DNA of 64,000 bases from an uncultured bacterium (lineage in GTDB: Bacteria; Patescibacteriota; Saccharimonadia; UBA4664): contig CAVUEQ010000003.1 in NCBI GenBank assembly GCA_963740635.1, positions 161,350-225,349 of the forward strand. Direction: 5' to 3'. Every line of letters begins with the position of its first letter. Position 1 is the stretch's first letter. Positions 10,661 through 47,754 of the stretch are shown here, one piece after another. A program made the position numbers and the translations under genes. The notes under the pieces are model-generated. The model saw only the letters and a program-made list of their open reading frames with translations. It was not told the origin of the DNA and ran no database searches.

Positions 10661-11638
10661 TTAAGATAGCAGAGGCTTTTTGGGAGCGTACTGGGTAGGC
10701 AGTTTGACCTTAAAGGTACTGCCCTCGCCGGGCGTGGATTCGACCGTGATTTCGCCATGGTGCAGGTCGGCGATGCGCTTGGCGATGGACAGGCCGAGAC
10801 CGTAGCCCCCGGGGTGGTTTTTGGAGCGGGAGCGGTCGGCGCGGTAGAAGCGGTCGAAGATGTGCGGGATGTCGGCCGCACTGATGCCGGCGCCGTGGTC
10901 GGCCACGCTCAGGCGCACGGCATTGCCGGCCAGCTCTGAGCGCAGCGTGATGGTGGTGCCTTCGGGGCTGTACTTGATGGCGTTGTCGAGCAGGATGGCC
11001 ACCAGCTCGAGGAGGCTGTCGCGGTCGCCGGCCACGGTTTCGGCGCCGGCGTGACGGTCGATGGTGAGGCGGCGGGCATGTGCGATCTTGTCGAACCGGG
11101 CGGCAGCAGCGGCAAACAGCTCGCGCACCGGCACCCGGCTGACGGCCCGCGGGTCGAGCCCGTTCTCGAAGCGCGCGAGGCGCAGCAGGCCGGCCGACAG
11201 CGCCTCGAGCTTGGCAATCTCTTCGAGGTTGGAGCCGAGGAGTTCGCGGGCCTCGGCGCTGGTGAGCTGCTTCTGGCGCAGGGCCACTTCGATCTCTGCG
11301 CGCATGGCGGTGAGCGGCGTGCGCAGCTCGTGGCTGGCGTCGGCGGTGAAGCGCCCCTGGGCCTCCATGGAGTCCTGGATTGGCCGCAGCGTGCGCCGCG
11401 CCAAGAAATACGCGGCCGCGCCGCCGACCAGCAGCGTGGAGATGTTCAAAACCACCAGGCGCAGCAGGATTTGGCGCGTGTCCGCGTCGAGCTGGTCGTC
11501 GAGGGCCTGCAGAAATTCGGCGCGGCGCGGTTCGAGCCCGCCCGGCAGCGGCAGCCGCTCGATGGCGTTACGCTGGTGGTCGGCGTTGGCGGCCAGCTGG
11601 CTGGTGGATTCGCGGTACAAAGCCACACTAAAAAGCAC
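10661..11638 (-). CDS. Sensor histidine kinase (HisKA + HATPase_c); the N-terminal TM1 is in another frame
   Basis: H-box SHELRTPL plus N/G boxes. The natural ATG at 11702 (TAAcATG after the regulator) is out of frame by one nt. Confidence 0.85.
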   Translation of the reverse strand: MLFSVALYRESTSQLAANADHQRNAIERLPLPGGLEPRRAEFLQALDDQLDADTRQILLRLVVLNISTLLVGGAAAYFLARRTLRPIQDSMEAQGRFTADASHELRTPLTAMRAEIEVALRQKQLTSAEARELLGSNLEEIAKLEALSAGLLRLARFENGLDPRAVSRVPVRELFAAAAARFDKIAHARRLTIDRHAGAETVAGDRDSLLELVAILLDNAIKYSPEGTTITLRSELAGNAVRLSVADHGAGISAADIPHIFDRFYRADRSRSKNHPGGYGLGLSIAKRIADLHHGEITVESTPGEGSTFKVKLPTQYAPKKPLLS

Positions 11639-11703
11639 CGAAAAGGACCAAAATAATGCCCAAGTACCACAGGGTGAGCTTGAAGATGGCTGAGTGGATC
11701 ATG

Positions 11704-12387
11704 TTAATCGCTTGAAGTGGAAAGTTTATAGCCGAAGCCGCGGACGGTGTGAATTAACTCCGGCCCCTTGAACGGCCTCTCTATTTTAGCGCGAAGGTAG
11801 CCGATGTAGACCTCAAGCGTGTTGGGCAAGATGTCGGCGTCGTAGTCCCAGACGTGGCTGATGATGTTGGATTTGGTGAGAATGCGGTTTTGGTTGCGGA
11901 GCAGGTACTCGAGCAGGGCGTATTCGCGCTGGGACAGCTGCACCCGGCGGCCGGCGCGCTTGACCTCGTAGGTCTCGGTGTCGAGGCTGAGGTCGGCCAG
12001 CCGCAGCACGTTGCCGACGGTGTCCTGGGGCCGGCGCAGCAGGGCGCGGATGCGAGCCAACAGCTCTTCGAAAGCAAACGGCTTCACGAGGTAATCGTCG
12101 GCGCCGGAGTTGAGGCCCTCCACGCGGTCGGCGATCTTGTCTTTGGCGGTGAGCATGAGGATAGGGGTGCGGATGCCCTCGGCGCGGACCTGACGGCAGA
12201 TCTCGGCGCCGTCGTGGCCGCCGGGCAGCATGCGGTCGAGCACTATCACGTCGTACTCGTCGGTGAGGGCGTTGCTCAGGCCGTCGTCGCCGTCAAACAC
12301 AGCGTCAACCGCGTACGATTCCTGCTCCAGCCCGCGCTTAATGGCACCGGCGATTTTGTGCTCGTCTTCGACAACTAGGACTCTCAT
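11704..12387 (-). CDS. OmpR-family response regulator
   Basis: MRVLVVEDE receiver domain plus a winged-helix C-terminus (TVRGFGYKL). TATTAT-N6-ATG. Confidence 0.95.
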   Translation of the reverse strand: MRVLVVEDEHKIAGAIKRGLEQESYAVDAVFDGDDGLSNALTDEYDVIVLDRMLPGGHDGAEICRQVRAEGIRTPILMLTAKDKIADRVEGLNSGADDYLVKPFAFEELLARIRALLRRPQDTVGNVLRLADLSLDTETYEVKRAGRRVQLSQREYALLEYLLRNQNRILTKSNIISHVWDYDADILPNTLEVYIGYLRAKIERPFKGPELIHTVRGFGYKLSTSSD

Positions 12388-12436
12388 GGCCGCATAATAC
12401 TCTGAATGGGCTGAGAATGCGCTGAAGGGGAAGGGC

Positions 12437-12832
12437 TTACGAATGGGAGTCCATGACGGCCAGCCCGCCAAGGCGCGAGGCTAATATTTTGCTGTCCGAT
12501 GTTATCAGCACCAGGCGCTCGGTAAGGGCTTGGGAGACCAGGAGTTGGTCGAATGGGTCTGATATCTGGCCATAATCGAGCCGGCGAAGGGTCCGGAGGT
12601 GACGTTCAGACAGATCGAACTGGCGTAGGCGCATCGCTGCAAGCAGGTCGAAAATGTCCCCGGGGAGCTCCAGCTTGCCAAGTCTGAGCTTGAGGACAAC
12701 CTCCCATAGCGAAACGATGGACAGGGCGCATTCATCTAATTGCTGCTCCATAAGCTGGATGACAGACGGGTTGAGCCTGGGGTCGGCTGTCACAAACCAT
12801 AGAAAGACGTTGGTATCGAGCAGAAAGGTCAT
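12437..12832 (-). CDS. vapC: PIN-domain toxin VapC
   Basis: MTFLLDTNVFLW and a conserved acidic pattern. 4-nt overlap with the antitoxin. Confidence 0.9.
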   Translation of the reverse strand: MTFLLDTNVFLWFVTADPRLNPSVIQLMEQQLDECALSIVSLWEVVLKLRLGKLELPGDIFDLLAAMRLRQFDLSERHLRTLRRLDYGQISDPFDQLLVSQALTERLVLITSDSKILASRLGGLAVMDSHS

Positions 12833-13074
12833 TGCTCAATGCGACGCTTAACGGCCTGGGCAATCTCCGCGTCGGCCTGGTCATAGTCTGGAGCATATTT
12901 CACCTGATCGCGCCAAACGCCGAAAAAAGTTGCGGGTTTGGGGGCGGGTTTAATGGCTTTCAGCTCAACAGCCGGCTTGCCATGGCTACCAATTACCACC
13001 GTTTCCCCTTGCAGGGCCTGGGATACAAGCTTGCTAAACTGCGTTTTCGCCTCATAAATCGTGTAAGTCTTCAT
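12829..13074 (-). CDS. Phd/YefM-family antitoxin
   Basis: MKTYTIYEAKTQFSKLV is a typical Phd N-terminus. Start at ATG 13074. Confidence 0.85.
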   Translation of the reverse strand: MKTYTIYEAKTQFSKLVSQALQGETVVIGSHGKPAVELKAIKPAPKPATFFGVWRDQVKYAPDYDQADAEIAQAVKRRIEQ

Positions 13075-13081
13075 GCCCGTT

Positions 13082-13117
13082 ATTATATCTGGACGATCTA
13101 AGTTGGTCAATGACCAA
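13082..13117 (-). promoter_or_regulatory. Consensus promoter with a palindromic operator for phd-vapC
   Basis: TTGACC-17-TATAAT-N7-ATG. A perfect TTGGTCA-A-TGACCAA palindrome (13103..13117) covers the -35. Confidence 0.65.
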
Positions 13118-13179
13118 GTTTTAGACCAAATGGCTGTAGAGCAGGTCGTAAAATCCTCAAAATCGCTATAATAGCAGCA

Positions 13180-14022
13180 ATGGATGGACACGATGTAGAC
13201 ATATACCGGCGGCTGCTGCGTGAGTCCCCTGCTCTGGTGGTGATGATGCGCGGGCGGGAGGGCCGCGTGGAGCTGGTGAGCGATATGGCCCAGAGTTACC
13301 GGCCGTGGGCAACGCTACCGGGTAAGACGATGCGCCAGGCATGGCCGTTTTTGAAGGGCACGGGCTACTTCGAGATGTACGAGCGCGTGTTCGACACGGG
13401 TGAGCCCATGCGATTAGACGAGGCTATGGTGACGAGCGATCGCGGGCAGCGCGGCAAGCCTCGACCGTCATGGTTTAACATTAATTTTCAGCCGTACCGG
13501 GACGGCGAAGGTAAGGTATTGGGCGTGCTGCTGTACGGCGTGGACGTGACCGAGGCTGTGCTCAGCCGCCGGGCGCTGGAGGAGAGCCGGAAGCGGCTGG
13601 AGTTGGCTCAGGAGGCCGGCGGGATCGGTGTGTATGAGTGGGTAATCGAGACCGGTGAGGTGATATGGTCGCCCGAAGTGTCGGAGCAGTTTGGCATTCA
13701 GCACGGGACGTTCGAGGGCACGTACGAGGGCTGGACCAAGCGCGTGCACCCCGAGGATGTGGCGAACGCCGAGAGCTGGGTGCGCCGGGCAGTGGAGGAG
13801 CGCGAGCTGATGAACATGGAGATAAGAATTATCCGCCCGGACGGCAGTGTGCGGTGGCAGCTGGCGCGGGCGCGGGTGCTTGTGGACGAGCAGGATCGGC
13901 CGCGCAAGTTCATAGGGATGGTCATCGATATCACCGACCGAAAACTGCTGGAGGAGCGGCTGAAGGACGCCAACGAGCGGATTACTAAGATATTGGGCGA
14001 CATTTTGGACGGCCGGGCTTAG
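13180..14022 (+). CDS. Tandem PAS/PAC domain protein without an output domain
   Basis: Two PAS-like modules (...GVDVTE..., ...MVIDITDRK). TATAAT-N7-ATG. Confidence 0.85.
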   Translation: MDGHDVDIYRRLLRESPALVVMMRGREGRVELVSDMAQSYRPWATLPGKTMRQAWPFLKGTGYFEMYERVFDTGEPMRLDEAMVTSDRGQRGKPRPSWFNINFQPYRDGEGKVLGVLLYGVDVTEAVLSRRALEESRKRLELAQEAGGIGVYEWVIETGEVIWSPEVSEQFGIQHGTFEGTYEGWTKRVHPEDVANAESWVRRAVEERELMNMEIRIIRPDGSVRWQLARARVLVDEQDRPRKFIGMVIDITDRKLLEERLKDANERITKILGDILDGRA

Positions 14023-14159
14023 CCGAAGAAGTTTTGCGCTATCCGGTAGCCAACTGTCAAAGCGGGCAAGTATGTGAACGGTAAATCGTAACATTGATTT
14101 AGACGCCGGCACGGAGCAAAGTTGATGCTGGAATTAATCGTGTGGAAAGGGATAGTGCG

Positions 14160-14582
14160 ATGGCGAAGATGAATCCGGTGGTGCATTTCGAGATGGGGTA
14201 CAAGGACCGGGAGCGGATGAAGAAGTTTTATGAGACATGTTTCGGCTGGAAGATGCAGCAGATGGGCGCGGAGATGGGTCAGTACGTGGTGGCGCAGACC
14301 ACCAAGACCGACGCCGACGGGATGGTGCAGACGAAGGGCGCGATTAACGGCGGGTTTTACGAGAAGACCGACAATCCGCTGAGCCAGGCGCCGTCGGTGG
14401 TGGTGTCGGTGGATGATGTGAAGGCGGCAATGAAGGCCGTGGAAGCAGCCGGCGGAGAGATCCTGGGGGGCATGAATGAGAAGGGCGAGCACACGATGGA
14501 GCCGACGATGATCCCGGGAGTGGGGCTGTGGATCTCGGCCCGGGACACCGAGGGGAACCGTTTTTCGATATTGCAGCCGTAG
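14160..14582 (+). CDS. VOC (glyoxalase/bleomycin-resistance fold) family protein
   Basis: MNPVVHFEM...FYETCFGW pattern. SD AAAGGGA before ATG 14160. Confidence 0.8.
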   Translation: MAKMNPVVHFEMGYKDRERMKKFYETCFGWKMQQMGAEMGQYVVAQTTKTDADGMVQTKGAINGGFYEKTDNPLSQAPSVVVSVDDVKAAMKAVEAAGGEILGGMNEKGEHTMEPTMIPGVGLWISARDTEGNRFSILQP

Positions 14583-14592
14583 GGTTCGGGCC

Positions 14593-14862
14593 ATGAAGAA
14601 GTGGTCACAGAAGGTTACGGAAGGGAGCGATGCGCTTGATCTGGAAGAGGGCGTGTTTACTTGGAATGACCCGAGGCGGATTGCCGAATCGCTCAAGCGG
14701 TCGGCAGATGTGAGCGAGCGACGCAAGGGGACGCCGTACCAGTCGGCGATGTCGATGCTGAATTTCTACATTAACCGGGCGGGGCATACTCTGCCGGACG
14801 AGCACAGGCGCACGCTCGAGGCGGCCAAAGTGGAGCTGCGGCGGGCGTTTGGCCGGGGGTGA
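14593..14862 (+). CDS. DUF3175-like protein
   Basis: KGTPYQSAMSMLNFYINRAG is the signature I associate with DUF3175. Confidence 0.7.
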   Translation: MKKWSQKVTEGSDALDLEEGVFTWNDPRRIAESLKRSADVSERRKGTPYQSAMSMLNFYINRAGHTLPDEHRRTLEAAKVELRRAFGRG

Positions 14863-14981
14863 CGGCTACTGCCCAGGAGCCATCCAGCTATTACGGCTCA
14901 ATATCCGGGCTAAGACTCGCTCGGAGGGAGTCGAGTTCGGTATTTGTATGGTATAATAACCTTCTACAGATAGGGGAGAAT

Positions 14982-15581
14982 ATGCCAAACCGGCGCCGGC
15001 GCTTTATTGATGGCAACTATTACCACGTGTTTGGGCGCGGCAACCACAAGGACGTGGTGTTTCGGGAGGCGCCCGACCGCGTGCAGTTCTTAAATAAACT
15101 CGAGAGCTACTGCGACCGGGATGAGCAATCGATAATCGCGTACTGCCTCATGGACAACCACTACCATCTGCTGCTGCGACAGGACGGCGAGCGGCCATTG
15201 TCGCGCACTATGCGGTCACTGCTGCAGGGTTACGCCCAGTATTACAACCGCAAATACGGCACCGTGGGCTCATTGTTTCAGGGGCGGTTCGGCTCGGTGC
15301 TGGTTGACCACCCGCAGCACAATCCGCGGCGCTTGGCCGGCCTCACGCGCTACATCCATCGCAATCCCCTGCCCTTTGCGGACTTTACGAAGTACCAATG
15401 GTCGAGTTACCGCCAGTATGCGACGGGTACGGCCGGGGTGTGCGATACTCAGACGGTGCTCGAGCTCTTCCCCATAAAGGGTAGTTACACCACATTTTGC
15501 GAAAACTATGCTCCCTCCGAGCGAGCCGAGAAGCCGAAAAATTATCGTGTAATAGCCGGCCGGCGCTTGGCCAATGATTGA
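14982..15581 (+). CDS. IS200-like / REP-associated Y1 (HUH) transposase
   Basis: HUH motif NHYHLLL and the catalytic Tyr region RYIHRNPL. TATAAT and SD GGGGAGA lie upstream. Confidence 0.8.
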   Translation: MPNRRRRFIDGNYYHVFGRGNHKDVVFREAPDRVQFLNKLESYCDRDEQSIIAYCLMDNHYHLLLRQDGERPLSRTMRSLLQGYAQYYNRKYGTVGSLFQGRFGSVLVDHPQHNPRRLAGLTRYIHRNPLPFADFTKYQWSSYRQYATGTAGVCDTQTVLELFPIKGSYTTFCENYAPSERAEKPKNYRVIAGRRLAND

Positions 15582-15607: not shown

Positions 15608-16873
15608 CTACACCAGGTGCGCGTAGAGGAGGTCAGTGGGCGCCAGCACCTGATAGCTGACCCCGAGACGGTCGAGGCGGGCAGTGAGAGCGGGGAAATC
15701 AGCGGGGGCGGCGACTTCGATGCCGACCAGGGCGGAGCCGGAGTCTTTGTTGGTTTTCTTGATGTATTCGAAGCGGGTGATGTCGTCGGTGGGGCCGAGG
15801 GCACGGTCTACGAACTGGCGGAGTTGGCCGGGCTTTTGCTGGAATTCGACCAGCAGGTAATGCTTGAGGCCCTCGTGGGCGAGGCTGCGCTCCATGATTT
15901 CGGGGTAGCGCAGGATGTCGTTGTTGCCGCCGGAGACGATGACGACCACGGTTTGGCCGCGGAGTTTAGGGGCGAGCTGGTCGAGGGCGGAGGTGGCCAG
16001 GGCGCCGGCGGGCTCAGTGACGATGCCCTCGTTTTGGTAGAGCTCGATCATGGTGGTGCAGGTTTTGCCCTCGGGGACGAGAACGAGGTCGTCGAGGAGG
16101 TCTTTGGCGATGGCGAAGGTGCGCTCGCCGACGGATTGGACCGCCGCGCCGTCCACGAATTTGTCGATGCGGTCCAGGCGCACCACGCGGCCCTCGCGCA
16201 GGGCGCGGTGCATGGCGGGCGCGCCGGCGGGCTCGGCGCCGAGGAGCTTGAGGTCCGGCAGCTTGGCCTTGAGGTAGGTGCCGAGCCCGGCCGCCAACCC
16301 GCCGCCGCCCACCGGGACCACGACGACGTCCGGGCCGCCAGGCAGGGCCTCGAGGATTTCGCGGCCCACGGTCCCCTGCCCGGCCATCACACGCGGGTCG
16401 TCGAAGGGGTGCACGAACACGGCGCCGGACTTGGCAGTGTGCTCGAGCGCCGCCGCCAGGGAGTCGTCGAAGGTGTGGCCGCTCAAACGCACGTCGGCCC
16501 AGTCGCCGCCGAAGTGCCGGATGCGGCTGATTTTCTGCGGCGGGGTGCCCTCGGGCACATAGATGGCGGTGCGGATTTTGAGAGTGGCGGCGGCCAGCGC
16601 TACGCCCTGCGCGTGGTTGCCGGCGCTGGCGGTGACGGCTCCCCGTTTGCGCTCCTCCGCGCTCAGGCCCTTCATGAGGTTGTAAGCGCCCCGCAATTTG
16701 TAGCTGCGCACCACCTGCTGGTCCTCGTGCTTAAGATAGATTTTGGCATGAAGGCGCTCCGAAAGCCGCTCCGAATATTCGAGCGGGGTGCGCTTTACCA
16801 GGTCGTAAATCTGCCCGGCGGCGGCATCGACGTCAGCGGCGGACAGCAGTTTTGATGTGGTGGCGGTGGGCAT
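15608..16873 (-). CDS. ilvA: Threonine ammonia-lyase (biosynthetic type, one C-terminal regulatory domain)
   Basis: PLP-fold sequence with an ACT-like C-terminus. 421 aa. Confidence 0.95.
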   Translation of the reverse strand: MPTATTSKLLSAADVDAAAGQIYDLVKRTPLEYSERLSERLHAKIYLKHEDQQVVRSYKLRGAYNLMKGLSAEERKRGAVTASAGNHAQGVALAAATLKIRTAIYVPEGTPPQKISRIRHFGGDWADVRLSGHTFDDSLAAALEHTAKSGAVFVHPFDDPRVMAGQGTVGREILEALPGGPDVVVVPVGGGGLAAGLGTYLKAKLPDLKLLGAEPAGAPAMHRALREGRVVRLDRIDKFVDGAAVQSVGERTFAIAKDLLDDLVLVPEGKTCTTMIELYQNEGIVTEPAGALATSALDQLAPKLRGQTVVVIVSGGNNDILRYPEIMERSLAHEGLKHYLLVEFQQKPGQLRQFVDRALGPTDDITRFEYIKKTNKDSGSALVGIEVAAPADFPALTARLDRLGVSYQVLAPTDLLYAHLV

Positions 16874-16887
16874 GTGCGACCTTTCGT

Positions 16888-16916
16888 TAAATGAAAAGGC
16901 CTCCCGGGCGGGAGGC
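16888..16916 (-). terminator. Attenuator terminator about 15 nt upstream of the ilvA SD
   Basis: GCCTCCC-GCCC-GGGAGGC followed by CTTTTCATTT on the minus strand. Confidence 0.75.
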
Positions 16917-16942
16917 TTCCTGGTTGGCGTTTGGGCTCTGAG

Positions 16943-17011
16943 CTACGCTAAACCGGCCTCCCGAGGGGGGTGGCTAATAATCATGCCAATGATGATGGCG
17001 GCGTGGCTCAT
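16943..17011 (-). CDS. Ile-rich leader peptide MSHAAIIIGMIISHPPREAGLA
   Basis: 22 codons, 5 of them Ile. TACACT-N6-ATG. Its 3' end contains CGGGAGGCC, which can pair with the terminator 5' arm. Confidence 0.65.
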   Translation of the reverse strand: MSHAAIIIGMIISHPPREAGLA

Positions 17012-17059
17012 GGGCGCAGTGTAGCATACCCGCCCGGCCTCCGCTACGTCGCCGGCGCG

Positions 17060-17088
17060 TTGACCTGCGCGCGGACCGCGTCTATAAT
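17060..17088 (+). promoter_or_regulatory. Consensus sigma-70-type promoter for tRNA-Asn
   Basis: TTGACC-17 nt-TATAAT, 15 nt before the tRNA 5' end. Confidence 0.8.
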
Positions 17089-17103
17089 TCGCGAGTACCA
17101 CAT

Positions 17104-17178
17104 TCCGGAGTAGCTCAGTGGTAGAGCAGTTCGCTGTTAACGAATTGGTCGTCGGTTCGAGCCCGACCTCCGGAGCCA
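17104..17178 (+). tRNA. tRNA-Asn (GTT), CCA encoded
   Basis: Cloverleaf read by hand. Acceptor TCCGGAG/CTCCGGA, D arm GCTC..GAGC, anticodon loop CTGTTAA, T arm GTCGG-TTCGAGC-CCGAC. Confidence 0.95.
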
Positions 17179-17192
17179 GGAATTATTCGATG

Positions 17193-17226
17193 AAAGAGGC
17201 TTTCTTAGGCCTCTTTTTATTTTTTG
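17193..17226. terminator. Bidirectional terminator between the tRNA and the P-type ATPase
   Basis: AAGAGGC-tttcttag-GCCTCTT followed by a T-run. It overlaps the ATPase stop. Confidence 0.75.
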
Positions 17227-19547
17227 GATACGAGGGCTTTGACCATGTCCGAAACTTGCATCCAGCCGAAGGACCAGACCCAGACGATGAGGATCCATTC
17301 GAGGGGCAAGGGGGTCATGAACAGCCCGGCGCCGGCGATGAGGGTGGCTATGAGCTGGGTGACGGTGGTAGCGGCGATGACCTGGCGGCTGGGCAAGAAG
17401 CGATACCACGGCTCGTCGGTATGGGCGACATAGATGAGCATGTGGCCGGCCACGGTGAGCTTGAGGAAGAAAGCGGTTTGGATGACTTCAATCGGCAGCC
17501 GGGCCGGGTAACGCATGATGTAGAACAGCAGGAGGCTGCTGGCGATACCGACGGTGCCATGGAGTATACCGCGGTAGAGTTTGCGCTTGGAGCGGCTGGA
17601 GGCGGGGGCGTGGCCGGTGCGGACGCGGTTAAAAGCCAGGGAGATGATCGGCAAATCGTTGAGGAAGGCAATGAGAATGAGCTGGATGGGCGTGATGGGA
17701 TAACTGTGGACAAGCAGGCCCAAAACGGCGATGGTGACGATGAGGCGCAGACTCTCTGAGATGCGGTAGACCGAATAACTGTAGAGGCGCTCGAAGATTT
17801 TGCGGGATTCGGTGAGGGCGTCTTTGACGACGGCCACGCCGGGTGCTGTTAGCACCACGTCGGCCGAGCTTTTGAGCGCGTCGACCGAATTGGCGACCGC
17901 AATGCCTATGTCGGCGGCGGCAACCGACGGCAGGTCATTGACGCCGTCGCCGGTGGCTGCGACCACGAAATCGTGCTTGGCAGCTTCCACGAGGCGGTAT
18001 TTGTCTTCGGGCAGGATTTCGGCGAAACCGGCGGCGGCATGCCACCAGGATTTGGAGACGGCGGCGCCGGGTGGCGGGAGCTCGCCGGCCGGCTTCACGC
18101 GCCCGCGCAGGCCGAGCAGCTGGGCGATGCGGGTGGCGATGGCGAGGTTGTCGCCGGTGATCATTTTGGTCTCGATGCCCTCCAGCCGCAGGGCTTCGAT
18201 GGTCTGTTTGGCGTCGGCGCGGGGCGGGTCGGACAGCATAACGAGGCCGAGCAGCTTCATGCCTTCCTCCCGTCGGCCTTCGGCTTGGGCCACGGCGAGC
18301 ACGCGGAAACCGTCGGCGGCGGCCGCGGCCACATCACGGTCGGCGCGAGACTGGATGCGCGGGTCTGCGCGGCAGAGCGCAGTCACCACCTGCACTGCGC
18401 CCACCGAAATGGTGAGCTCCCCGTCGGCGGCCTTGAGGTAGCCGGTGGTGCGCTTGCGCTGGGAGTCGGCCGGCACGGTGTCGAGCAGCTGCGCTGCATG
18501 GCCCGCGGGGTGTTCGGCGGCGGCGGCGCGCAGGGCGTGGTTGATGGGGTCTTGCTCCACCGTTGAGACGGCGGCGGCCCATGCCAGCACCCCGGCCTCG
18601 TCCATGCCGTCGTATGGAACCACGCGGGCCACGGTGATGGTGTTTTGGGTGAGAGTGCCGGTCTTGTCGCTGAGGAGCAGGTTGACGTTGGCCAGGTTCT
18701 CAAGGGCCGACATTTGGCGCACGATGACGCCACGATGCGACAGTTCCACCACGCCGATGCTGATGATAATAGTCATGACTGTGGGCAGGCTCACGGGCAC
18801 GCCGGCTATGAGGAGGCTGAGATCGAGGCGCAGCAATTCGGGAAGCGGCTGGTGGCCGGCCAGGAACACCAAGGTGAGGATGGTGACGGCAACCAAACTG
18901 GTGATGGAGAGCAGATAGGCCACGCTAAGCATATCCTGCTCGAGGAGGCTGCGCTTGGTGGCCTTTTCGACCAGTAGGATGGCCTTGCCGAAGGTAGTGC
19001 GGGCGCCGGTGCGGGTGAGGCGGGCGCGGGCCAGGCCGGTAGTGACGTACGAGCCCGCCAGCAATTGGTCGCCGGGCACTTTGTCTTTGGGCAATGATTC
19101 GCCGGTGAGGGCCGCCTCGTTGGCGGTGAGATTCTTGGCCTCTACCAAGTCGGCATCGGCCGGCACGAGTCCGCCGACGCCCAGCTCCACCAAATCGCCT
19201 GGTACGAGTTGCTCCGAGGCTACAGGCTGCCACTGTCCGTCGCGCAGGGTGCGGATAAACACCCGGAGCTTGGACCGGAGCTCTTCGACTGCGGCGCCGG
19301 CCCGCCGCTCCTGGCCAAAGGTGATAAAACCGTTGAGGCCAGTGAGGAACATGATTAGCCAAAAATCGAACTGGTGCCGGCTGAACCAGGATAACGCTGC
19401 GGCTGCGAGCAACATCAAGGTTATCGGCGAAAACAGCCATTTGGCGAGGCGCTTGAGAATGCCCGGCCGCTGCTCCGGAACCGAGTTGGGCCCGTATTTC
19501 GTAAACAGCCGCCCTGCTTCGGCCGAGGTCAGTCCGGGTTGCTCCAT
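17217..19547 (-). CDS. P-type ATPase, type IIIA (plasma-membrane H+-ATPase-like)
   Basis: DKTGTLTQN, MITGDNLAIA, GDGVNDLPS. The N-terminus GLTSAEAGRLFTKYGPN is typical of H+-ATPases. Confidence 0.9.
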   Translation of the reverse strand: MEQPGLTSAEAGRLFTKYGPNSVPEQRPGILKRLAKWLFSPITLMLLAAAALSWFSRHQFDFWLIMFLTGLNGFITFGQERRAGAAVEELRSKLRVFIRTLRDGQWQPVASEQLVPGDLVELGVGGLVPADADLVEAKNLTANEAALTGESLPKDKVPGDQLLAGSYVTTGLARARLTRTGARTTFGKAILLVEKATKRSLLEQDMLSVAYLLSITSLVAVTILTLVFLAGHQPLPELLRLDLSLLIAGVPVSLPTVMTIIISIGVVELSHRGVIVRQMSALENLANVNLLLSDKTGTLTQNTITVARVVPYDGMDEAGVLAWAAAVSTVEQDPINHALRAAAAEHPAGHAAQLLDTVPADSQRKRTTGYLKAADGELTISVGAVQVVTALCRADPRIQSRADRDVAAAAADGFRVLAVAQAEGRREEGMKLLGLVMLSDPPRADAKQTIEALRLEGIETKMITGDNLAIATRIAQLLGLRGRVKPAGELPPPGAAVSKSWWHAAAGFAEILPEDKYRLVEAAKHDFVVAATGDGVNDLPSVAAADIGIAVANSVDALKSSADVVLTAPGVAVVKDALTESRKIFERLYSYSVYRISESLRLIVTIAVLGLLVHSYPITPIQLILIAFLNDLPIISLAFNRVRTGHAPASSRSKRKLYRGILHGTVGIASSLLLFYIMRYPARLPIEVIQTAFFLKLTVAGHMLIYVAHTDEPWYRFLPSRQVIAATTVTQLIATLIAGAGLFMTPLPLEWILIVWVWSFGWMQVSDMVKALVSKK

Positions 19548-21377: not shown

Positions 21378-22595
21378 TTATGGCTCCAGCGCATCAAGCG
21401 CTTGCCGCAGGTCAGCCAGTAAGTCCGCGTCGTTTTCGATACCGACGGAGATTCGGAACAAGCCGTCGGTGAGGCCGATTTTGGCCCGTTCTTCCGGCGG
21501 GGTGGCGGCGCTGGTCATGCTGGCCGGGTGGTCGATAAGCGACTCCACGCTGCCAAGACTCTCGGCTAACGGAAAGTACTTGAGCGCCTGCACGAAGCGC
21601 TGAGGGTTGTATTCCGGCTTGAGCTCCAGGGAAACAATCCCGCCGCCGCCCTTCATCTGCGCTTTGACAATCCGGCCTTGCCCGCCCTCAAAGAAATCCG
21701 GGTAGTAGACTTGTTTGACTTTGGGATGGTCGCGAAGCATCGCGGCTACTTGCCGGGCATTTTCGACATGCCGCTGCATGCGCAGCTCCAGCGTACGCAG
21801 GCCTCGCAGCGTCAGCCAGCTGTCGAACGGCGATAATATGGCACCAATGGAGTTCTGTAAAAATTTGAGCCTGGTATATAACGCCTCGTTGCTGGTCGTC
21901 AGCGCACCGCCGACGACGTCGCTGTGGCCGTTCATATATTTGGTAGTTGAATACGCGACAACATCCGCGCCTAAGGCGGCCGGTAGCTGCAAGACTGGCG
22001 TGGCAAAGGTGTTATCCACCACGAGCCAGGCTTTATACTTTTTGGCTAGAATGCTGAGCCGTTTGATATCCGCCACCTTGAGCAGCGGATTGGTCGGCGT
22101 CTCTATCCAGATGATTTTTACGCTGCCTTGTTTGAGCGCCTTTTCGGCTTCCATAGCGTCGGTCAGGTCGGCGATCCGGTATTTGATGCCTTGCGCTCCG
22201 GCGGCCCGGACAATGAACCGGTAGGTGCCACCGTAGCTATCGCTTGAGAATAGGATCATTTCGTCCGGCCCCAGCAGCGCCACGATGTTGGCCAGGGCGG
22301 CCGAGCCAGAACTGTATACTAAGCCGTACTTATTGCCGTCCAGATCGGCGAGTACTTGCTCCAGCAAGATGCGGGTGGGATTGGCGGTGCGCGAGTAGTC
22401 ATAGTGTTCGTAGTCATTATTGAACTTGAACTTATTCTTGGCCTTCCATTCTGGCAGCGGCACGGAGCCGTCATAAAAGCCGCCGTTATTGCCAAATTTG
22501 AAAGTTGTACTGAGATGGAGAGGTGGAATGATCGCCCCGTCGTCGTCGTTCGGTGTGTAGCCGCTATGCAACACGTTTGTGGAAAATCCTGTCAT
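21378..22595 (-). CDS. Cys/Met-metabolism PLP enzyme (cystathionine gamma-lyase/synthase family)
   Basis: YSTTKYMNGHSDVVGG PLP-lysine region. Adjacent to the CBS/CysK-like gene. Confidence 0.9.
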   Translation of the reverse strand: MTGFSTNVLHSGYTPNDDDGAIIPPLHLSTTFKFGNNGGFYDGSVPLPEWKAKNKFKFNNDYEHYDYSRTANPTRILLEQVLADLDGNKYGLVYSSGSAALANIVALLGPDEMILFSSDSYGGTYRFIVRAAGAQGIKYRIADLTDAMEAEKALKQGSVKIIWIETPTNPLLKVADIKRLSILAKKYKAWLVVDNTFATPVLQLPAALGADVVAYSTTKYMNGHSDVVGGALTTSNEALYTRLKFLQNSIGAILSPFDSWLTLRGLRTLELRMQRHVENARQVAAMLRDHPKVKQVYYPDFFEGGQGRIVKAQMKGGGGIVSLELKPEYNPQRFVQALKYFPLAESLGSVESLIDHPASMTSAATPPEERAKIGLTDGLFRISVGIENDADLLADLRQALDALEP

Positions 22596-22610
22596 ACCAT
22601 TTTTCCTTAA

Positions 22611-23546
22611 CTAAAAGTAATTCTTTGATAGGTACGCCCGGCCGGAGTCGCTGAATATCGTGACGGCCAGACCGGTCTTGGTTAAATATTGCTGGTAATT
22701 CTGGGCCGCATAGGCCACGGCTCCACTGCTCGGTCCCACCAACAGGCCGTGTTTTGAGGCCAGCAACCGCAGCATGGCTATGGCATCCGCATCCCCGACG
22801 TTTATGAACTCATCAATTACCGCTTCGTTTAGGCACGGGGTTTCGAAATCAATGCCGATGCCTTCCAGGACATAGGGCTTTGGTTTTCCTCCCGTGGCAT
22901 GGAATGATGCGGCTGAGTCCACAGCGATTACTTTAATGTCAGGATTCTGCTCCTTCAGATACGCGCCGACGCCACTGACCTGACCGCCCGTACCGGCCGC
23001 TGCAAAATAATGGGTAATTTTGCCGCCGGTTTGGCGCCAGATTTCCGGCCCCAGACTAAGGTAATGCGCCTGGGGGTTGGCGGTGTTGAAGTACTGGTCC
23101 GGCATCCACGCGCCGGGGGTGCGCTTTTGCAGCGCCACCGCCTGAGCGTGATAGTTCCCCGGGTCGTCATGCTCATCGGTAGCCGGGCATATCAGCAGCT
23201 TGGCCCCATAGGCCTGGAGCGTGCGCTTTTTCTCTTCGCTGACTTTCTCCGAGACGGTGATAATGACCTCATAGCCTTTTACGGCTCCGATCATCGCCAG
23301 GGCGATGCCCTGGTTGCCCGATGAGGCCTCAATGATGGTTCCGCCTGGTTTTAGCAGGCCGCGGCGTTCGGCTTCCTCAACCATGTAGAGGGCAGTCCGG
23401 TCTTTGATACTGCCGCCTGGGTTTAGGTATTCAAGCTTAGCGAACATTGCGGCCGGCCTGCCCAACGGCAGCTTTATCATGGGAGTATTGCCGATGGCAT
23501 CGAGCAGGCTGCCTAGGTTCGTCTTGGTATCTTCAATTGTTATCAT
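22611..23546 (-). CDS. Cysteine synthase / cystathionine beta-synthase family PLP enzyme
   Basis: LEYLNPGGSIKDR and SSGNQG motifs. Confidence 0.9.
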   Translation of the reverse strand: MITIEDTKTNLGSLLDAIGNTPMIKLPLGRPAAMFAKLEYLNPGGSIKDRTALYMVEEAERRGLLKPGGTIIEASSGNQGIALAMIGAVKGYEVIITVSEKVSEEKKRTLQAYGAKLLICPATDEHDDPGNYHAQAVALQKRTPGAWMPDQYFNTANPQAHYLSLGPEIWRQTGGKITHYFAAAGTGGQVSGVGAYLKEQNPDIKVIAVDSAASFHATGGKPKPYVLEGIGIDFETPCLNEAVIDEFINVGDADAIAMLRLLASKHGLLVGPSSGAVAYAAQNYQQYLTKTGLAVTIFSDSGRAYLSKNYF

Positions 23547-44758: not shown

Positions 44759-45949
44759 ATGCCGCGCAAGAAGATTTCGGAGTATCGGGCCAAAACCATT
44801 TTGTCTGATGTGCTAGGCAGAAAGTACGCCGGCGTGCCGGTTGATGCCGAGGGTAATTATGAGCCCGCACTCGCCTCTTTGGATGAGCATAAGCATTATG
44901 TGGTGAAGGTAGACCAGGGGGTGAAGGGGCGGTTCAAAAAGGGCCTGGTGAAACTGGGGCGGCAAAAGCCCGACCTGGCAGGGGACGTGAAAGAGCTGGC
45001 GGCCAAGGGCTTTCGCTATCTGATAATTGAGGAGCAACTGGGGCACGCCGCGGAAAGCGAGCGGTATCTGGCGTTTGAGCGGACCCGGGTGGGGAATATT
45101 ATCAGCTTCTCGGCGGTGGGCGGGGTGGACGTGGAATCAGCGCCGGGCGAGATAAGGCGGGCGCCGATTGGCCCGGAGGTGGCGGCCCGGGCCAGCGAAG
45201 CGCTGGGCGTGCCGGCGGAGGTACTCGGCGAATTGGCTGAGGCCTTTGACGACAATTATTTCTCGTTTCTTGAGGTGAACCCGCTGGTGGTTGAGAACGG
45301 CCAGGCGGAATTTCTGGACGCGGCGGTGGAGGTGGACTCGGAGGCGGCGTTTTTCGTGGACGGCCGCTGGACGCCGGACGACTTCCGGGTATACGAGGCC
45401 AAGGCGCAGCTGCCGCAGATGGCAGCCGTGGAGGAGCTGGCCAGCCAGAGCCAGGCGTCGTTCCGGCTAGCGGTGCTGAACCCCGAGGGCAGCATCTTCC
45501 TGCTGCTAAGCGGCGGCGGTGCTAGTGTGGTGCTGGCCGACGAAGTGTTTAACCAGGGCATGGGCCGGGCACTGGGCAACTATGGCGAGTACAGCGGCAA
45601 TCCGAATACCGAAGAAACCGTAATTTACACAAGGCAGGTGCTGTCGCTAATGCTAGACTCACCGGCGCCACACAAGGTTCTGGTGATTGCCGGCGGGGTG
45701 GCTAACTTTACCGATGTGCGCGCGACGTTTAAAGGCGTGATTATGGCCCTGCAGGAGGTAGCCGAGAAGATGCGCGCGGCCGGCATCAAGGTGTTTGTGC
45801 GGCGCGGCGGGCCGTTTGAGGCCGACGGCCTGGCGATGATGCGCGACTTTCTGGAACGGGAGGGCCTGCTCGGCGAAGTCAGCGGGCCGGAAATGATGAT
45901 GTCGGAAATAATTCCGCGGGCGCTCAAAGGTCTGGAGGCTGAGGTATGA
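44759..45949 (+). CDS. aclB: ATP-citrate lyase, ATP-grasp (SucC-like) subunit
   Basis: Colinear with the eukaryotic ACLY N-terminus: LEVNPLVV, LLSGGGASVVLAD, NYGEYSGNPNTEET, GGVANFTDVRATFKGV, FVRRGGP. Confidence 0.85.
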   Translation: MPRKKISEYRAKTILSDVLGRKYAGVPVDAEGNYEPALASLDEHKHYVVKVDQGVKGRFKKGLVKLGRQKPDLAGDVKELAAKGFRYLIIEEQLGHAAESERYLAFERTRVGNIISFSAVGGVDVESAPGEIRRAPIGPEVAARASEALGVPAEVLGELAEAFDDNYFSFLEVNPLVVENGQAEFLDAAVEVDSEAAFFVDGRWTPDDFRVYEAKAQLPQMAAVEELASQSQASFRLAVLNPEGSIFLLLSGGGASVVLADEVFNQGMGRALGNYGEYSGNPNTEETVIYTRQVLSLMLDSPAPHKVLVIAGGVANFTDVRATFKGVIMALQEVAEKMRAAGIKVFVRRGGPFEADGLAMMRDFLEREGLLGEVSGPEMMMSEIIPRALKGLEAEV

Positions 45950-47754
45950 GCACTCTGAATATAGCTGCACTGCGAGCGATTGAGCCGGTGATTGTGGCTC
46001 TGGGGAGCTCTAAAGGGATTGTGCAGTCAATTTTGGATTTTGACTATCTGGCGGGCCGTGAACTGCCCTCGGTGGTGGCCGTGGTGGCCACCGGACGCAA
46101 GAGCGAGCGTTACTTCTTCGGCGCTGAGGAAGTGACGATTCCAGTGTACGGCAGCGTGGAGAAGATTCCGGCGCGGCTGCGGTCGAGGATTAACTTGTTT
46201 TTGAACTTGTCGTCGGGGCGGCGAGTGCTTGCGAGCAGCCGGCAGGCGCTGGAGCAGCTGCCGGGCTTGGTGGGCGGAGTGGTGTTTGCCGAGGGACTGC
46301 CGGAGCGGCACGCGCTGATGCTGGCCGAAGAGGCGGCTGCGGCCGGTGTGTGGATCGCGGGCGGTGCGAGCGTGGGCCTGGTGGTGCCGGGCGTGGTGAA
46401 GCTGGGGCCTATAGGGGGTGTGCAGGCGCCGCAGCTAGTGAAATCGAAATTATTTACGCCCGGCTCGGTGGCGGTCGTGAGTTCGAGCGGCGGCATGGTA
46501 AGCGAAATTATCCGCATGGTGGCCACCAGCGGGCACGCACTGAGCTTTTCCCTGGCGATTGGCGGCGAACGGTTTCCGCTGAGCAGCCCGCAGGAGGTGT
46601 TTGCGGCGGCGCAGGCGGACCCCGAGACCAAAGCTATTGTGTACTTCGGTGAACTCGGGGGCTTGGATGAATACGACCTGGCCGAAATGATTGCGAGCGG
46701 GGCCGTGACCAAGCCGGTGGTGGCCTACATTGCGGGCACGGTCGCTGAGCTGTTTGAAACGGCGCCGCAATTTGGCCACGCGAAGGCCATGGCGGCTTCG
46801 GCCGACGAGTCGGCTGCGGCCAAGCGCGAGGCGCTGGCGGCGGCGGGCGCGCAGGCGGCGGCCACCTTCGCCGAGTTTGCGCAGCTGGTGGCCGCGCTGC
46901 CGGGCGCGGTGGAGGCGCCGGACCACGCGGCGGCGCTGAAGCTGCTGGGCTCGCGGCGGGCCGGGCTCATGGTGAGCTCGATCTCGCGTGACGACAGCGA
47001 AGGCGAAGTGGAAGTGCTGGGGCAGAGCCTGCTGGAGCTGGCCGGCAACAATTCGTTTGCGAAGATCGTGATCTCGATGTTTTTGGGGCGCCCGGCGAAG
47101 TCGCCGGAGTTGGAGGCCTTCGTGGATTATGTTTTGCGCGTGCTGGTAGACAACGGCCCGTACCAATCCGGCGTGGTTAACACCATAGTCACAGCCCGCG
47201 CGGGCCGCGACCTGGTTTCGAGCCTGGCGGCCGGCCTGCTCACCATCGGTCCGCGTTTCGGCGGCGCGGTGAACCAGGCGGCGACGACGTGGCTCGAGGG
47301 CGTGACCACCGGCCTGTCCCCCACTGCGCTGGTGGAAACCTACGCCGCCGGCCGGCGCTACATTTCCGGCATCGGCCACCGCAAATACCGCATCGACTCC
47401 CCCGACCCGCGCGTGGCCCGCGTGACCGCCTTTGCCGATGGCCTGGAGCACGCCCGCTTCACCAAATTTGCCCGCGGCGTCGAGCTAGAGACCACCCGCA
47501 AAAAGGGCAACCTCATCCTCAACGTCGACGGCGCCATGGCCGCCGTGCTGCTGGATCTGCTATCCGAAAAAGAGGGCCTGTCCCACGACGAACTAGTTGC
47601 CCTCACTCAAGTCGAATTCTTCAACGCCCTGTTTGTGCTGTCGCGGTCGGTCGGGTTTATGGCCCACTACTTCGACCAAGTGCGCCTCGACGAAGGCCTG
47701 TTCCGCCTCGGCCCGGCCCAGGTTACGCACGTCCGTCCCCTATCTGAGGATTAG
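45946..47754 (+). CDS. aclA: ATP-citrate lyase, CoA-ligase + citrate-synthase-like subunit
   Basis: Phosphohistidine loop QFGHAKA. GPRFGGA and GIGHRKYRIDSPDPR match the ACLY C-terminal domain. 4-nt overlap with aclB. Confidence 0.85.
   Translation: MSTLNIAALRAIEPVIVALGSSKGIVQSILDFDYLAGRELPSVVAVVATGRKSERYFFGAEEVTIPVYGSVEKIPARLRSRINLFLNLSSGRRVLASSRQALEQLPGLVGGVVFAEGLPERHALMLAEEAAAAGVWIAGGASVGLVVPGVVKLGPIGGVQAPQLVKSKLFTPGSVAVVSSSGGMVSEIIRMVATSGHALSFSLAIGGERFPLSSPQEVFAAAQADPETKAIVYFGELGGLDEYDLAEMIASGAVTKPVVAYIAGTVAELFETAPQFGHAKAMAASADESAAAKREALAAAGAQAAATFAEFAQLVAALPGAVEAPDHAAALKLLGSRRAGLMVSSISRDDSEGEVEVLGQSLLELAGNNSFAKIVISMFLGRPAKSPELEAFVDYVLRVLVDNGPYQSGVVNTIVTARAGRDLVSSLAAGLLTIGPRFGGAVNQAATTWLEGVTTGLSPTALVETYAAGRRYISGIGHRKYRIDSPDPRVARVTAFADGLEHARFTKFARGVELETTRKKGNLILNVDGAMAAVLLDLLSEKEGLSHDELVALTQVEFFNALFVLSRSVGFMAHYFDQVRLDEGLFRLGPAQVTHVRPLSED

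Follow-up and report, generated by a model that had tools for sequence, protein, structure and literature searches.

The stretch of DNA analyzed here (henceforth the window) comprises 64,000 nucleotides (nt) from an uncultured bacterium of the Saccharimonadia (contig CAVUEQ010000003.1). Its GC content is about 60%, and the AtpA protein that it encodes is 76–86% identical to proteins named Ca. Saccharimonadia, Saccharibacteria or Patescibacteria by their sources. On the minus strand lies ilvA, the gene for a threonine ammonia-lyase, which is monocistronic here and preceded by a compact array of elements in the order TGcTACACT, 6 nt, leader ATG (17011), leader open reading frame (ORF), 26-nt spacer, hairpin, U tract, Shine-Dalgarno sequence (SD) and ilvA. 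A divergent tRNA-Asn(GTT) gene (17104..17178, plus strand) flanks this leader and ilvA region. Most probably, the array works as a ribosome-mediated transcription attenuator, by which the level of charged Ile-tRNA would control a biosynthetic-type ilvA in Saccharimonadia. Its features, with the roles that we propose for them, are listed below in window coordinates, from ilvA back to the promoter.

15608..16873, minus strand: ilvA, threonine ammonia-lyase, 421 amino acids (NCBIfam and Pfam models)
16880..16885, minus strand: SD of ilvA, GAAAGG, read from the sequence, with the ilvA ATG 6 nt downstream
16889..16897, minus strand: U tract of the predicted terminator, UUUUCAUUU (consensus scan)
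16898..16905, minus strand: R4, GGGAGGCC, 3' arm of the predicted terminator
16910..16917, minus strand: R3, AGCCUCCC, 5' arm of the predicted terminator and antiterminator partner of R2
16922..16926, minus strand: CAACC, 3' arm of the second antiterminator helix (folds and pair counts)
16939..16948, minus strand: stop-codon region GCGUAGCUCA, with the ORF stop and a second-frame TAG that begins just upstream of it
16950..16954, minus strand: GGUUU, 5' arm of the second antiterminator helix (folds; partner CAACC)
16956..16962, minus strand: R2, GGGAGGC, putative switch segment pairing with R1 or R3 (the repeat CGGGAGGCC, 16955..16963, includes its flanks)
16968..16974, minus strand: R1, GCCACCC, putative anti-antiterminator arm pairing with R2
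16976..16981, minus strand: second Ile cluster, ATT ATT, codons 11–12, proposed as the decisive stall site
16988..16996, minus strand: first Ile cluster, ATC ATC ATT, codons 6–8
17001..17010, minus strand: 5'-terminal segment UGAGCCACGC, nucleotides 2–11 of the predicted transcript, pairing with the stop-codon region (helix P0)
16943..17011, minus strand: leader ORF, 22 codons and TAG, MSHAAIIIGMIISHPPREAGLA, read from the sequence; orthologous ORFs of 20–23 codons in all relatives
17018..17026, minus strand: extended -10 box TGcTACACT (TACACT at 17023..17018, preceded by TGc), 6 nt before the leader ATG

Several of these elements had been pointed out in an earlier, sequence-only reading, which proposed classical attenuation of ilvA by a leader peptide rich in isoleucine (Ile). 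The leader ORF is indeed present at 17011..16943 with five Ile codons among its 22, and the duplicated arm CGGGAGGCC (16963..16955) repeats the 3' arm of the downstream hairpin as had been described. A consensus scan for intrinsic terminators recovered that hairpin and its T tract, GCCTCCC-GCCC-GGGAGGC followed by CTTTTCATTT (16916..16889, minus strand), with a stem of 7 bp, six of them G-C pairs, and a 4-nt loop. Only its distance from the gene needs correction. The earlier reading put its end about 15 nt ahead of the SD, but the gap between the U tract and the SD is 3 nt, and 15 nt is the distance from the U tract to the ilvA ATG. The assignment of the downstream gene as ilvA was borne out by NCBIfam model NF006390 (577 bits, cut-off 421) and likewise by TIGR02079 (549 bits, cut-off 440.55), whereas the model for catabolic TdcB, NF006389, gave 273 bits, under its cut-off of 453. 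Its Pfam domains are PF00291 and PF00585, the latter a single C-terminal regulatory domain. By these model scores the enzyme of the window is a biosynthetic-type IlvA, predicted to be of the Ile-feedback type, and not a catabolic TdcB.

In the genes of the window Ile accounts for 5.4% of the codons, and the probability of meeting at least five Ile codons among 21 is 0.0047. Only 6 of the 457 small ATG-initiated ORFs in the window have at least five, and the leader is both the shortest of the six and the one with the highest Ile density. From the window alone the leader stands modestly beyond chance; its conservation in relatives, judged from their sequences, raises it well above chance.

The relatives came from a large protein collection, in which, besides the IlvA of the window itself, a clade of 17 IlvA proteins, all from metagenomes or metagenome-assembled genomes, was found at 69–79% identity. 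Contigs for 10 of the 17 were fetched regardless of what they carried upstream. The arrangement of the window stands directly upstream of ilvA in nine of them, and the tenth begins inside the terminator. When metagenomes were scanned with CGGGAGGnCGGnnUAGCGUAG, a conserved motif of 21 nt, two matches came up, of which one (L092) is a genuine ilvA-linked member and the other (L091) a chance match lying in an unrelated palindromic region. The same architecture, with the leader MAKGIISIIGIIITSFGGALA, appeared in L009 (Candidatus Saccharibacteria), whose IlvA is 56% identical and whose upstream region has about 40% GC. We thus worked with a set of 12 leaders, made up of 11 close family members (including the window) and L009, in which IlvA identity to the window goes from 79% down to 56%. 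One leader-bearing relative is a complete genome of 1.32 Mb (CP064960.1). All 12 loci have the Ile-rich mini-ORF together with its Ile clusters, the GGGAGG duplicate, the terminator and the leaderless-type promoter.

Outside this set, L003 (Patescibacteria) has MKHFINSIIIIISAYPRAA and then a terminator whose core, judged by eye, is CCGCCC/GGGCGG in place of CCUCCC/GGGAGG. Scanning species-representative genomes with IlvA gave identities of 45–60% among the matches listed (Chloroflexi, Dormibacterota, Bacteroidota and a few Patescibacteria), a list that did not include the close relatives described above, and none of the Chloroflexi, Dormibacterota or Bacteroidota loci examined had an Ile-rich ORF upstream of ilvA. 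An nhmmer profile of the leader matched the window once, at ilvA, and found no copies in 80 distant ilvA loci, L003 being too divergent for detection in this way. One more Ile-rich mini-ORF upstream of ilvA, in L010, was set aside, being contained in the 3' end of a RidA-like gene.

The sequence TGnTAnnnT is found 6–9 nt 5' of the leader ATG in 12 of 12 leaders, and no SD precedes the leader; the leader mRNA is therefore predicted to be leaderless, with its 5' end at or next to A17011. It had been noted before that TACACT, 6 nt ahead of the leader ATG, follows a TAnnnT-N6-ATG geometry common to other genes of this DNA, and the count agrees: TAnnnT stands 5–9 nt upstream of 10 of the 47 long-ORF starts in the window, against 4.8% of all ATGs. 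At these starts the box is often TGnTAnnnT and without an SD (e.g. 9995, 13180, 19547, 27327, 44693, 58471), whereas an SD-like motif precedes about 40% of all long-ORF starts. Leaderless and SD-led initiation thus seem to be mixed in this Saccharimonadia genome, and full-text literature searches found no report of such mixed initiation in the Candidate Phyla Radiation (CPR).

Across the 12 leaders, Ile takes up 3–7 of the 20–23 codons and forms two clusters, the first usually with 1–3 Ile at codons 6–9 and the second usually at codons 11–13. Every family member has Ile codons before the second cluster, although in L085 (codons 3 and 7) and L009 (codons 5, 6, 8 and 9) their positions are exceptional. 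The Ile codons vary synonymously (ATT 43, ATC 11, ATA 2; i.e. 77% ATT), and indels in the N-terminal part of the leader are multiples of 3 among the relatives. Genes of the window favor ATC instead (325 ATC, 187 ATT and 83 ATA); slower wobble decoding, or avoidance of C and G in the unstructured part of the leader, are possible reasons for the ATT bias. A different kind of conservation is seen in the 3' part of the ORF, where the RNA is maintained and the C-terminus of the peptide is not. Two reading frames are used here, each with its own stop, and the conserved tail (C)GGUUUAGCGUAG after R2 contains stops in both. The first of these stops serves those relatives that differ by 1 nt further upstream and the second serves the rest, so that translation would end 5–6 or 10–11 nt past R2, which is where the stop codons of the 12 leaders lie. 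In six of the 12 leaders (L081, L083, L084, L088, L090 and L093) a Cys codon follows at least one Ile cluster, giving the pattern I-I-C-x-I-I-C in L081 and L088; there is no Cys in the window leader. The RNA could account for these Cys codons, as R1 begins with UGC (UGCCACCC), or else a second amino acid may be sensed.

The conserved RNA can be described as four segments with three possible pairings, R1:R2, R2:R3 (the putative antiterminator) and R3:R4 (the putative terminator), and the spacing of these segments relative to the Ile codons is constrained. In the 12 leaders, R1 (consensus GCCACCC) begins 0–7 nt downstream of the start of the last regulatory Ile codon (4 nt in six of them), and R2 (consensus GGGAGGC) follows 3–5 nt after R1, or 1 nt after it in L009. 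A spacer of variable length, which ends in AAACC-like bases, leads to the terminator, composed of R3 (GCCUCCC), a loop of 2–8 nt, R4 (GGGAGGC/U) and a U tract, and a T-rich tract is present after R4 in all 12.

Folding of the window sequence gave -8.8 kcal/mol for the R1:R2 hairpin, -25.8 for the 5' domain in which P0 encloses R1:R2, -22.8 for the antiterminator (R2:R3 plus GGUU:AACC and an inner hairpin) and -14.7 for the terminator hairpin. The full window leader folds with z = -2.0 and contains P0 in its minimum free energy structure (MFE); a transcript truncated ahead of R4 has the antiterminator as its MFE. When R4 was left out and the last Ile codon was occupied by a ribosome, the MFE was R2:R3 in 10 of 11 sequences, so the alternative structures that the sequence-only reading had postulated do appear in the folds. 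In L082 the antiterminator formed only partly, because the masked footprint overlapped R2 owing to an extra Ile codon inside R1. The terminator hairpin was present in the MFE of 8 of 11 full-length transcripts. When the segment from R2 to R3 was folded in isolation, independently of any alignment, it closed by R2:R3 in 12 of 12 cases (z from -1.9 to -6.1), while the MFE of the 5' domain showed R1:R2 in 11 of the 12 leaders and P0 enclosing it in 10. The attenuation logic proposed earlier is thus supported by comparison, spacing and folding, but it was incomplete, since R1, the GGUUU:AACC helix and P0 had been missed.

Covariation was assessed on eight helix blocks of fixed length registered by hand (alignment A2); MAFFT re-gapped the N-padded full-length manual alignment, and only the fixed-length blocks were used. 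For the terminator state, 80.6% of the cells are paired, as against 39–51% when the partners are slid, and six pairs (14 cells) have changed on both sides, a figure reached by none of 500 shuffles. The antiterminator has 89.6% of its cells paired versus 34–61% for slid partners, with three pairs changed on both sides. Among the individual helices, R3:R4 is 92% paired, its flank pair being A-U in five, G-C in five and G-U in one; R1:R2 is 82% paired, with an outer pair that covaries between G-C (six) and A-U (three); and P0 has 71% of its cells paired and three pairs with changes on both sides. The flank base after GGGAGG, in both R2 and R4, changes in step with the bases that it pairs with in R1 and R3, the four being G/C/G/C in the window and A/U/A/U in L082. 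In most leaders the second antiterminator helix reads GGUUU:AAACC; L009 has CCUU:AAGG and L085 has UUUGG:CCAAA. One pair of this helix is counted as G-C in 11 and C-G in one, and another as U-A in nine and C-G in one.

These data can be assembled into the following model of attenuation. The extended -10 promoter would start transcription at A17011 of the leader ATG or right beside it, and the leader would be read from a leaderless mRNA. When Ile is scarce, the ribosome would stall at the second Ile cluster (codons 11–12) and protect some 12–13 nt past the first base of the A-site codon, which would cover R1 (starting 4 nt downstream and ending at +10) and leave R2 (starting at +16) free. R2 would then pair with the emerging R3, reinforced by GGUUU:AACC, R3:R4 would be blocked and RNA polymerase would read into ilvA. 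When Ile is plentiful, a ribosome at the stop codon would cover all of R2 or its 3' half and R3 would pair with R4, so that this hairpin and the U tract would end transcription 3 nt before the ilvA SD. Without any ribosome R1:R2 would form, clamped by P0; R2 being sequestered, the terminator would form and the default state would be off. By analogy with pheL, the first Ile cluster may increase sensitivity, an action that probably needs an RNA polymerase pause after R1:R2. We infer the transcription start site, translation of the ORF, ribosome footprints, termination and the response to Ile from the sequence, its conservation and standard footprint sizes.

A number of observations weigh against this attenuator. 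The footprint sizes come from model bacteria, from whose ribosomes those of the CPR differ. With a stall at the first cluster R1 would stay uncovered, so RNA polymerase pausing or slow transit would be needed there. Registering the blocks of A2 by hand biases the covariation counts towards the structure, and no meaningful consensus emerged when the raw MAFFT alignment was given to RNAalifold (-2.15 kcal/mol), a result that we attribute to mis-registered terminator columns and to competition between the alternative folds. The GGGAGG/CCUCCC cores never vary and are therefore uninformative for covariation, and the flank pair of R2:R3 is unpaired in 5 of 12 leaders. In L083, L084 and L085 the unconstrained full-length MFE retains the antiterminator and not the terminator, the stem of the latter being 5 bp in L083. 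Finally, the 64-kb window has no further ilv gene and no leu gene, and none of the genes for the rest of the Ile pathway is found in it.

Other explanations of the same region were considered. The mini-ORF could be an independent gene for a small hydrophobic peptide with its own terminator, ilvA being transcribed separately. The ORF does have a promoter-like box of its own and a canonical terminator after it, and the N-terminal half of the peptide, M-N-Y-x-x-x-I-I-C-x-I-I-C-H-P, is fairly conserved. However, its C-terminal third is read in two frames across the relatives where the RNA is conserved, and its conserved non-Ile codons coincide with helices P0 and R1. A separate start for ilvA is hard to place, as the scan shows no promoter-like site in the 3 nt between the U tract and the SD. 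The element occurs upstream of ilvA only, at 12 loci whose flanking genes otherwise differ, and a duplicated arm giving a mutually exclusive antiterminator would be useless to a plain terminator. We regard an independent small-protein gene as extremely improbable. A switch that binds a ligand or protein (a riboswitch, a T-box-like element or the target of an RNA-binding protein) and controls the terminator, with an incidental ORF, is also very improbable. Such a switch does not explain why the ATG is invariant and keeps its distance from the -10 box, nor does it explain the synonymous Ile clusters, the 3-nt indels and the conserved spacing from Ile codons to R1. The 21-nt motif, which together with the alternative terminator and antiterminator folds and the conservation of the 3' part as RNA rather than peptide is what speaks for such a switch, is accounted for, part by part, by R2, by the second antiterminator helix, or by the two-frame stops and P0. 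The element is also too short for a T-box and has neither a specifier nor the T-box sequence. At gathering thresholds Rfam reported only tRNA (the tRNA-Asn) in the whole window, and in the leader region at E <= 10 the only leader family was Phe_leader (RF01859), which scored 20.2 bits (E = 1.7) where its gathering score is 55.

More difficult to separate from Ile-specific attenuation is a leader that reports general translation capacity or coupling, or that acts mainly on translation or stability of the ilvA mRNA, since any slow ribosome at codons 11–13 would give the same switch of folds. Here the Cys codons after each Ile pair in several leaders, and the rest of the Ile pathway not being found in the window, could be taken as support. 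Nevertheless, Ile alone is enriched in all 12 leaders against its frequency in the window genes, and Cys is absent from the leaders of the window, L082, L085, L092 and L009 and occurs once, at codon 3, in L095. The Ile precursor is the product of the regulated enzyme, which is predicted to be of the Ile-feedback type, and the canonical hairpin with its U tract stands before the SD, not over it. We therefore consider this explanation unlikely, and favor transcription attenuation responding to charged Ile-tRNA.

What such an attenuator would do for the cell depends on the metabolic setting of IlvA. In all Saccharimonadia loci examined ilvA stands alone. Elsewhere in the CPR, ridA (RidA/L-PSP; L003 2773..3150) begins 4 nt past ilvA behind the Ile-rich leader of L003, a RidA/L-PSP gene lies directly upstream of ilvA in L010, and a Levybacteria genome (L096 1..1204) has ilvA within a leuD-leuB-ilvA operon. 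These ridA and leuD-leuB linkages are consistent with a role in 2-oxobutyrate or branched-chain biosynthesis. In a 2026 preprint, which deals with another genus of Saccharimonadia, the same KEGG orthologue (K01754) is given as 'tdcB' and interpreted as catabolic. For the present lineage, the Ile leader and the regulatory domain speak for an enzyme that, as predicted from its sequence, answers to isoleucine supply. Saccharimonadia are generally amino-acid auxotrophs. That the attenuator operates in a lineage without the remaining isoleucine pathway is conceivable, if rather doubtful. In that event Ile starvation would switch on the production of 2-oxobutyrate which the cell itself cannot convert to isoleucine, pointing to a non-canonical route, to a pathway shared with the host bacterium, or to Ile-tRNA charging as a starvation proxy that triggers threonine catabolism.

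Some features of the surroundings are recorded here for completeness. The tRNA-Asn(GTT) gene has a near-consensus promoter, TTGACC-17-TATAAT (17060..17088, plus strand), and L082 and L083 have tRNA-Asn directly 5' of the leader as well, which makes the order tRNA-leader-ilvA partly syntenic. Between the 3' end of this gene and the stop of a P-type ATPase gene (17217..19547, minus strand) lies an 11-bp hairpin (17192..17217), followed by a T run on the plus strand, which is probably the terminator of both convergent genes. On the other side, a response regulator and a histidine kinase are encoded directly 3' of ilvA in relatives. Between ilvA and the corresponding pair of the window (12471..10661) come a PAS-domain ORF, an unassigned ORF and the ORF 14859..15581, the last of which has a weak match to a REP-associated tyrosine transposase (35 bits, cut-off 80); the difference in the region 10661..15581 between ilvA and the kinase pair may be an insertion.

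Near ilvA, paired genes at 21378..23546 (minus strand) code for a pyridoxal phosphate (PLP) enzyme of Cys/Met metabolism and a PALP-family (cysteine synthase/CBS-like) enzyme. Two neighboring genes at 44759..47754 (plus strand) have ATP-citrate lyase domains (Citrate_bind/ATP-grasp and CoA-ligase/citrate-synthase), which is unexpected in a small-genome Saccharimonadia bacterium. A YrlA (Y RNA-like) match at 17046..17158 (plus strand; 22 bits, gathering score 69) coincides in part with the tRNA-Asn gene; the tRNA-like module of the model is its most likely cause, with no real Y RNA behind it. It was discarded along with the other weak Rfam matches, Phe_leader, RcsR1 and ctRNA, all of them far under threshold.

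The mechanism of attenuation itself is known; what is new is its predicted occurrence in a minimal-genome Saccharimonadia lineage for which it had not been described, and full-text literature searches found no report of attenuation or of leaderless leaders in Saccharibacteria, Patescibacteria or the CPR. As the mechanism is textbook, the advance lies in scope and physiology and not in kind. CPR bacteria are usually described as low in regulatory capacity, and their metabolism is inferred from gene lists alone. If our interpretation holds, the element is direct sequence evidence that Saccharimonadia couple transcription with translation, that intrinsic terminators and leaderless initiation serve them in regulation, and that their threonine dehydratase, which stands alone, is linked to the supply of isoleucine, instead of or besides threonine catabolism. 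It predicts that ilvA mRNA goes up under Ile limitation, and it provides a compact motif for annotating these genomes, for which Rfam holds no family.

The best known attenuators with leader peptides are those of enterobacteria, such as trpL, pheL (FFF-A-FFF-T-F), ilvL of ilvGMEDA and ivbL of ilvBN; these classical cases are said to have been reviewed by Yanofsky in 1981. The ilvA leader has the same 1:2, 2:3 and 3:4 logic, with regulatory codons just before or overlapping segment 1, a terminating ribosome that would mask segment 2 from the stop codon and an intrinsic terminator before the first structural gene, and, as in pheL, the regulatory codons form two clusters. Unlike the enterobacterial leaders, with which it shares no sequence homology (no Rfam family at threshold), it has no SD and begins at the predicted 5' end of the transcript, it stands before a lone ilvA and not an operon, and it has its stop downstream of segment 2, stops in two frames and the extra helix P0. 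It would sense Ile only, as opposed to the Ile, Val and Leu of ilvL.

Firmicute ilv-leu leaders are SD-led. Passages on Listeria Rli60 (PMC5864092) and on a Leu-rich attenuator peptide of Staphylococcus aureus (PMC5794164) describe, as here, a leader peptide or attenuator before branched-chain amino-acid genes; in the same passages these leaders, which have no sequence relation to the ilvA leader, control an ilv-leu operon together with CodY. Among actinobacteria, attenuation by an upstream ORF (uORF) is described for Corynebacterium ilvBNC (in passages of PMC11857589 and PMC10272879), and leaderless poly-Cys uORFs of mycobacteria are described as attenuating operonic gene expression (in part of bioRxiv 10.1101/834739). 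According to these passages, such uORFs resemble the ilvA leader in being short, leaderless or nearly so, rich in the sensed residue and active through alternative hairpins or ribosome stalling, and differ from it in their targets (ilvB or cysteine genes), in what is sensed (Ile/Val/Leu or Cys) and in lineage.

Leaderless leader peptides have also been described in Deinococcus deserti, for which parts of de Groot et al. 2014 (PMC4007540) give 14 cases predicted to act in attenuation; the main text of that paper has no occurrence of isoleucine. D. deserti belongs to another phylum, and its leaders have no detectable sequence relationship to the one described here. Its cases, as given in those parts of the paper, carry transcription start site support from differential RNA sequencing (dRNA-seq), unlike the ilvA leader, which is known from sequence alone. 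The architecture is nevertheless alike as far as those parts go: in D. deserti, too, transcription starts at the A of the leader ATG right after the -10 box, as we predict for ilvA, and short ORFs rich in the cognate residue stand before genes for amino-acid biosynthesis or tRNA synthetases.

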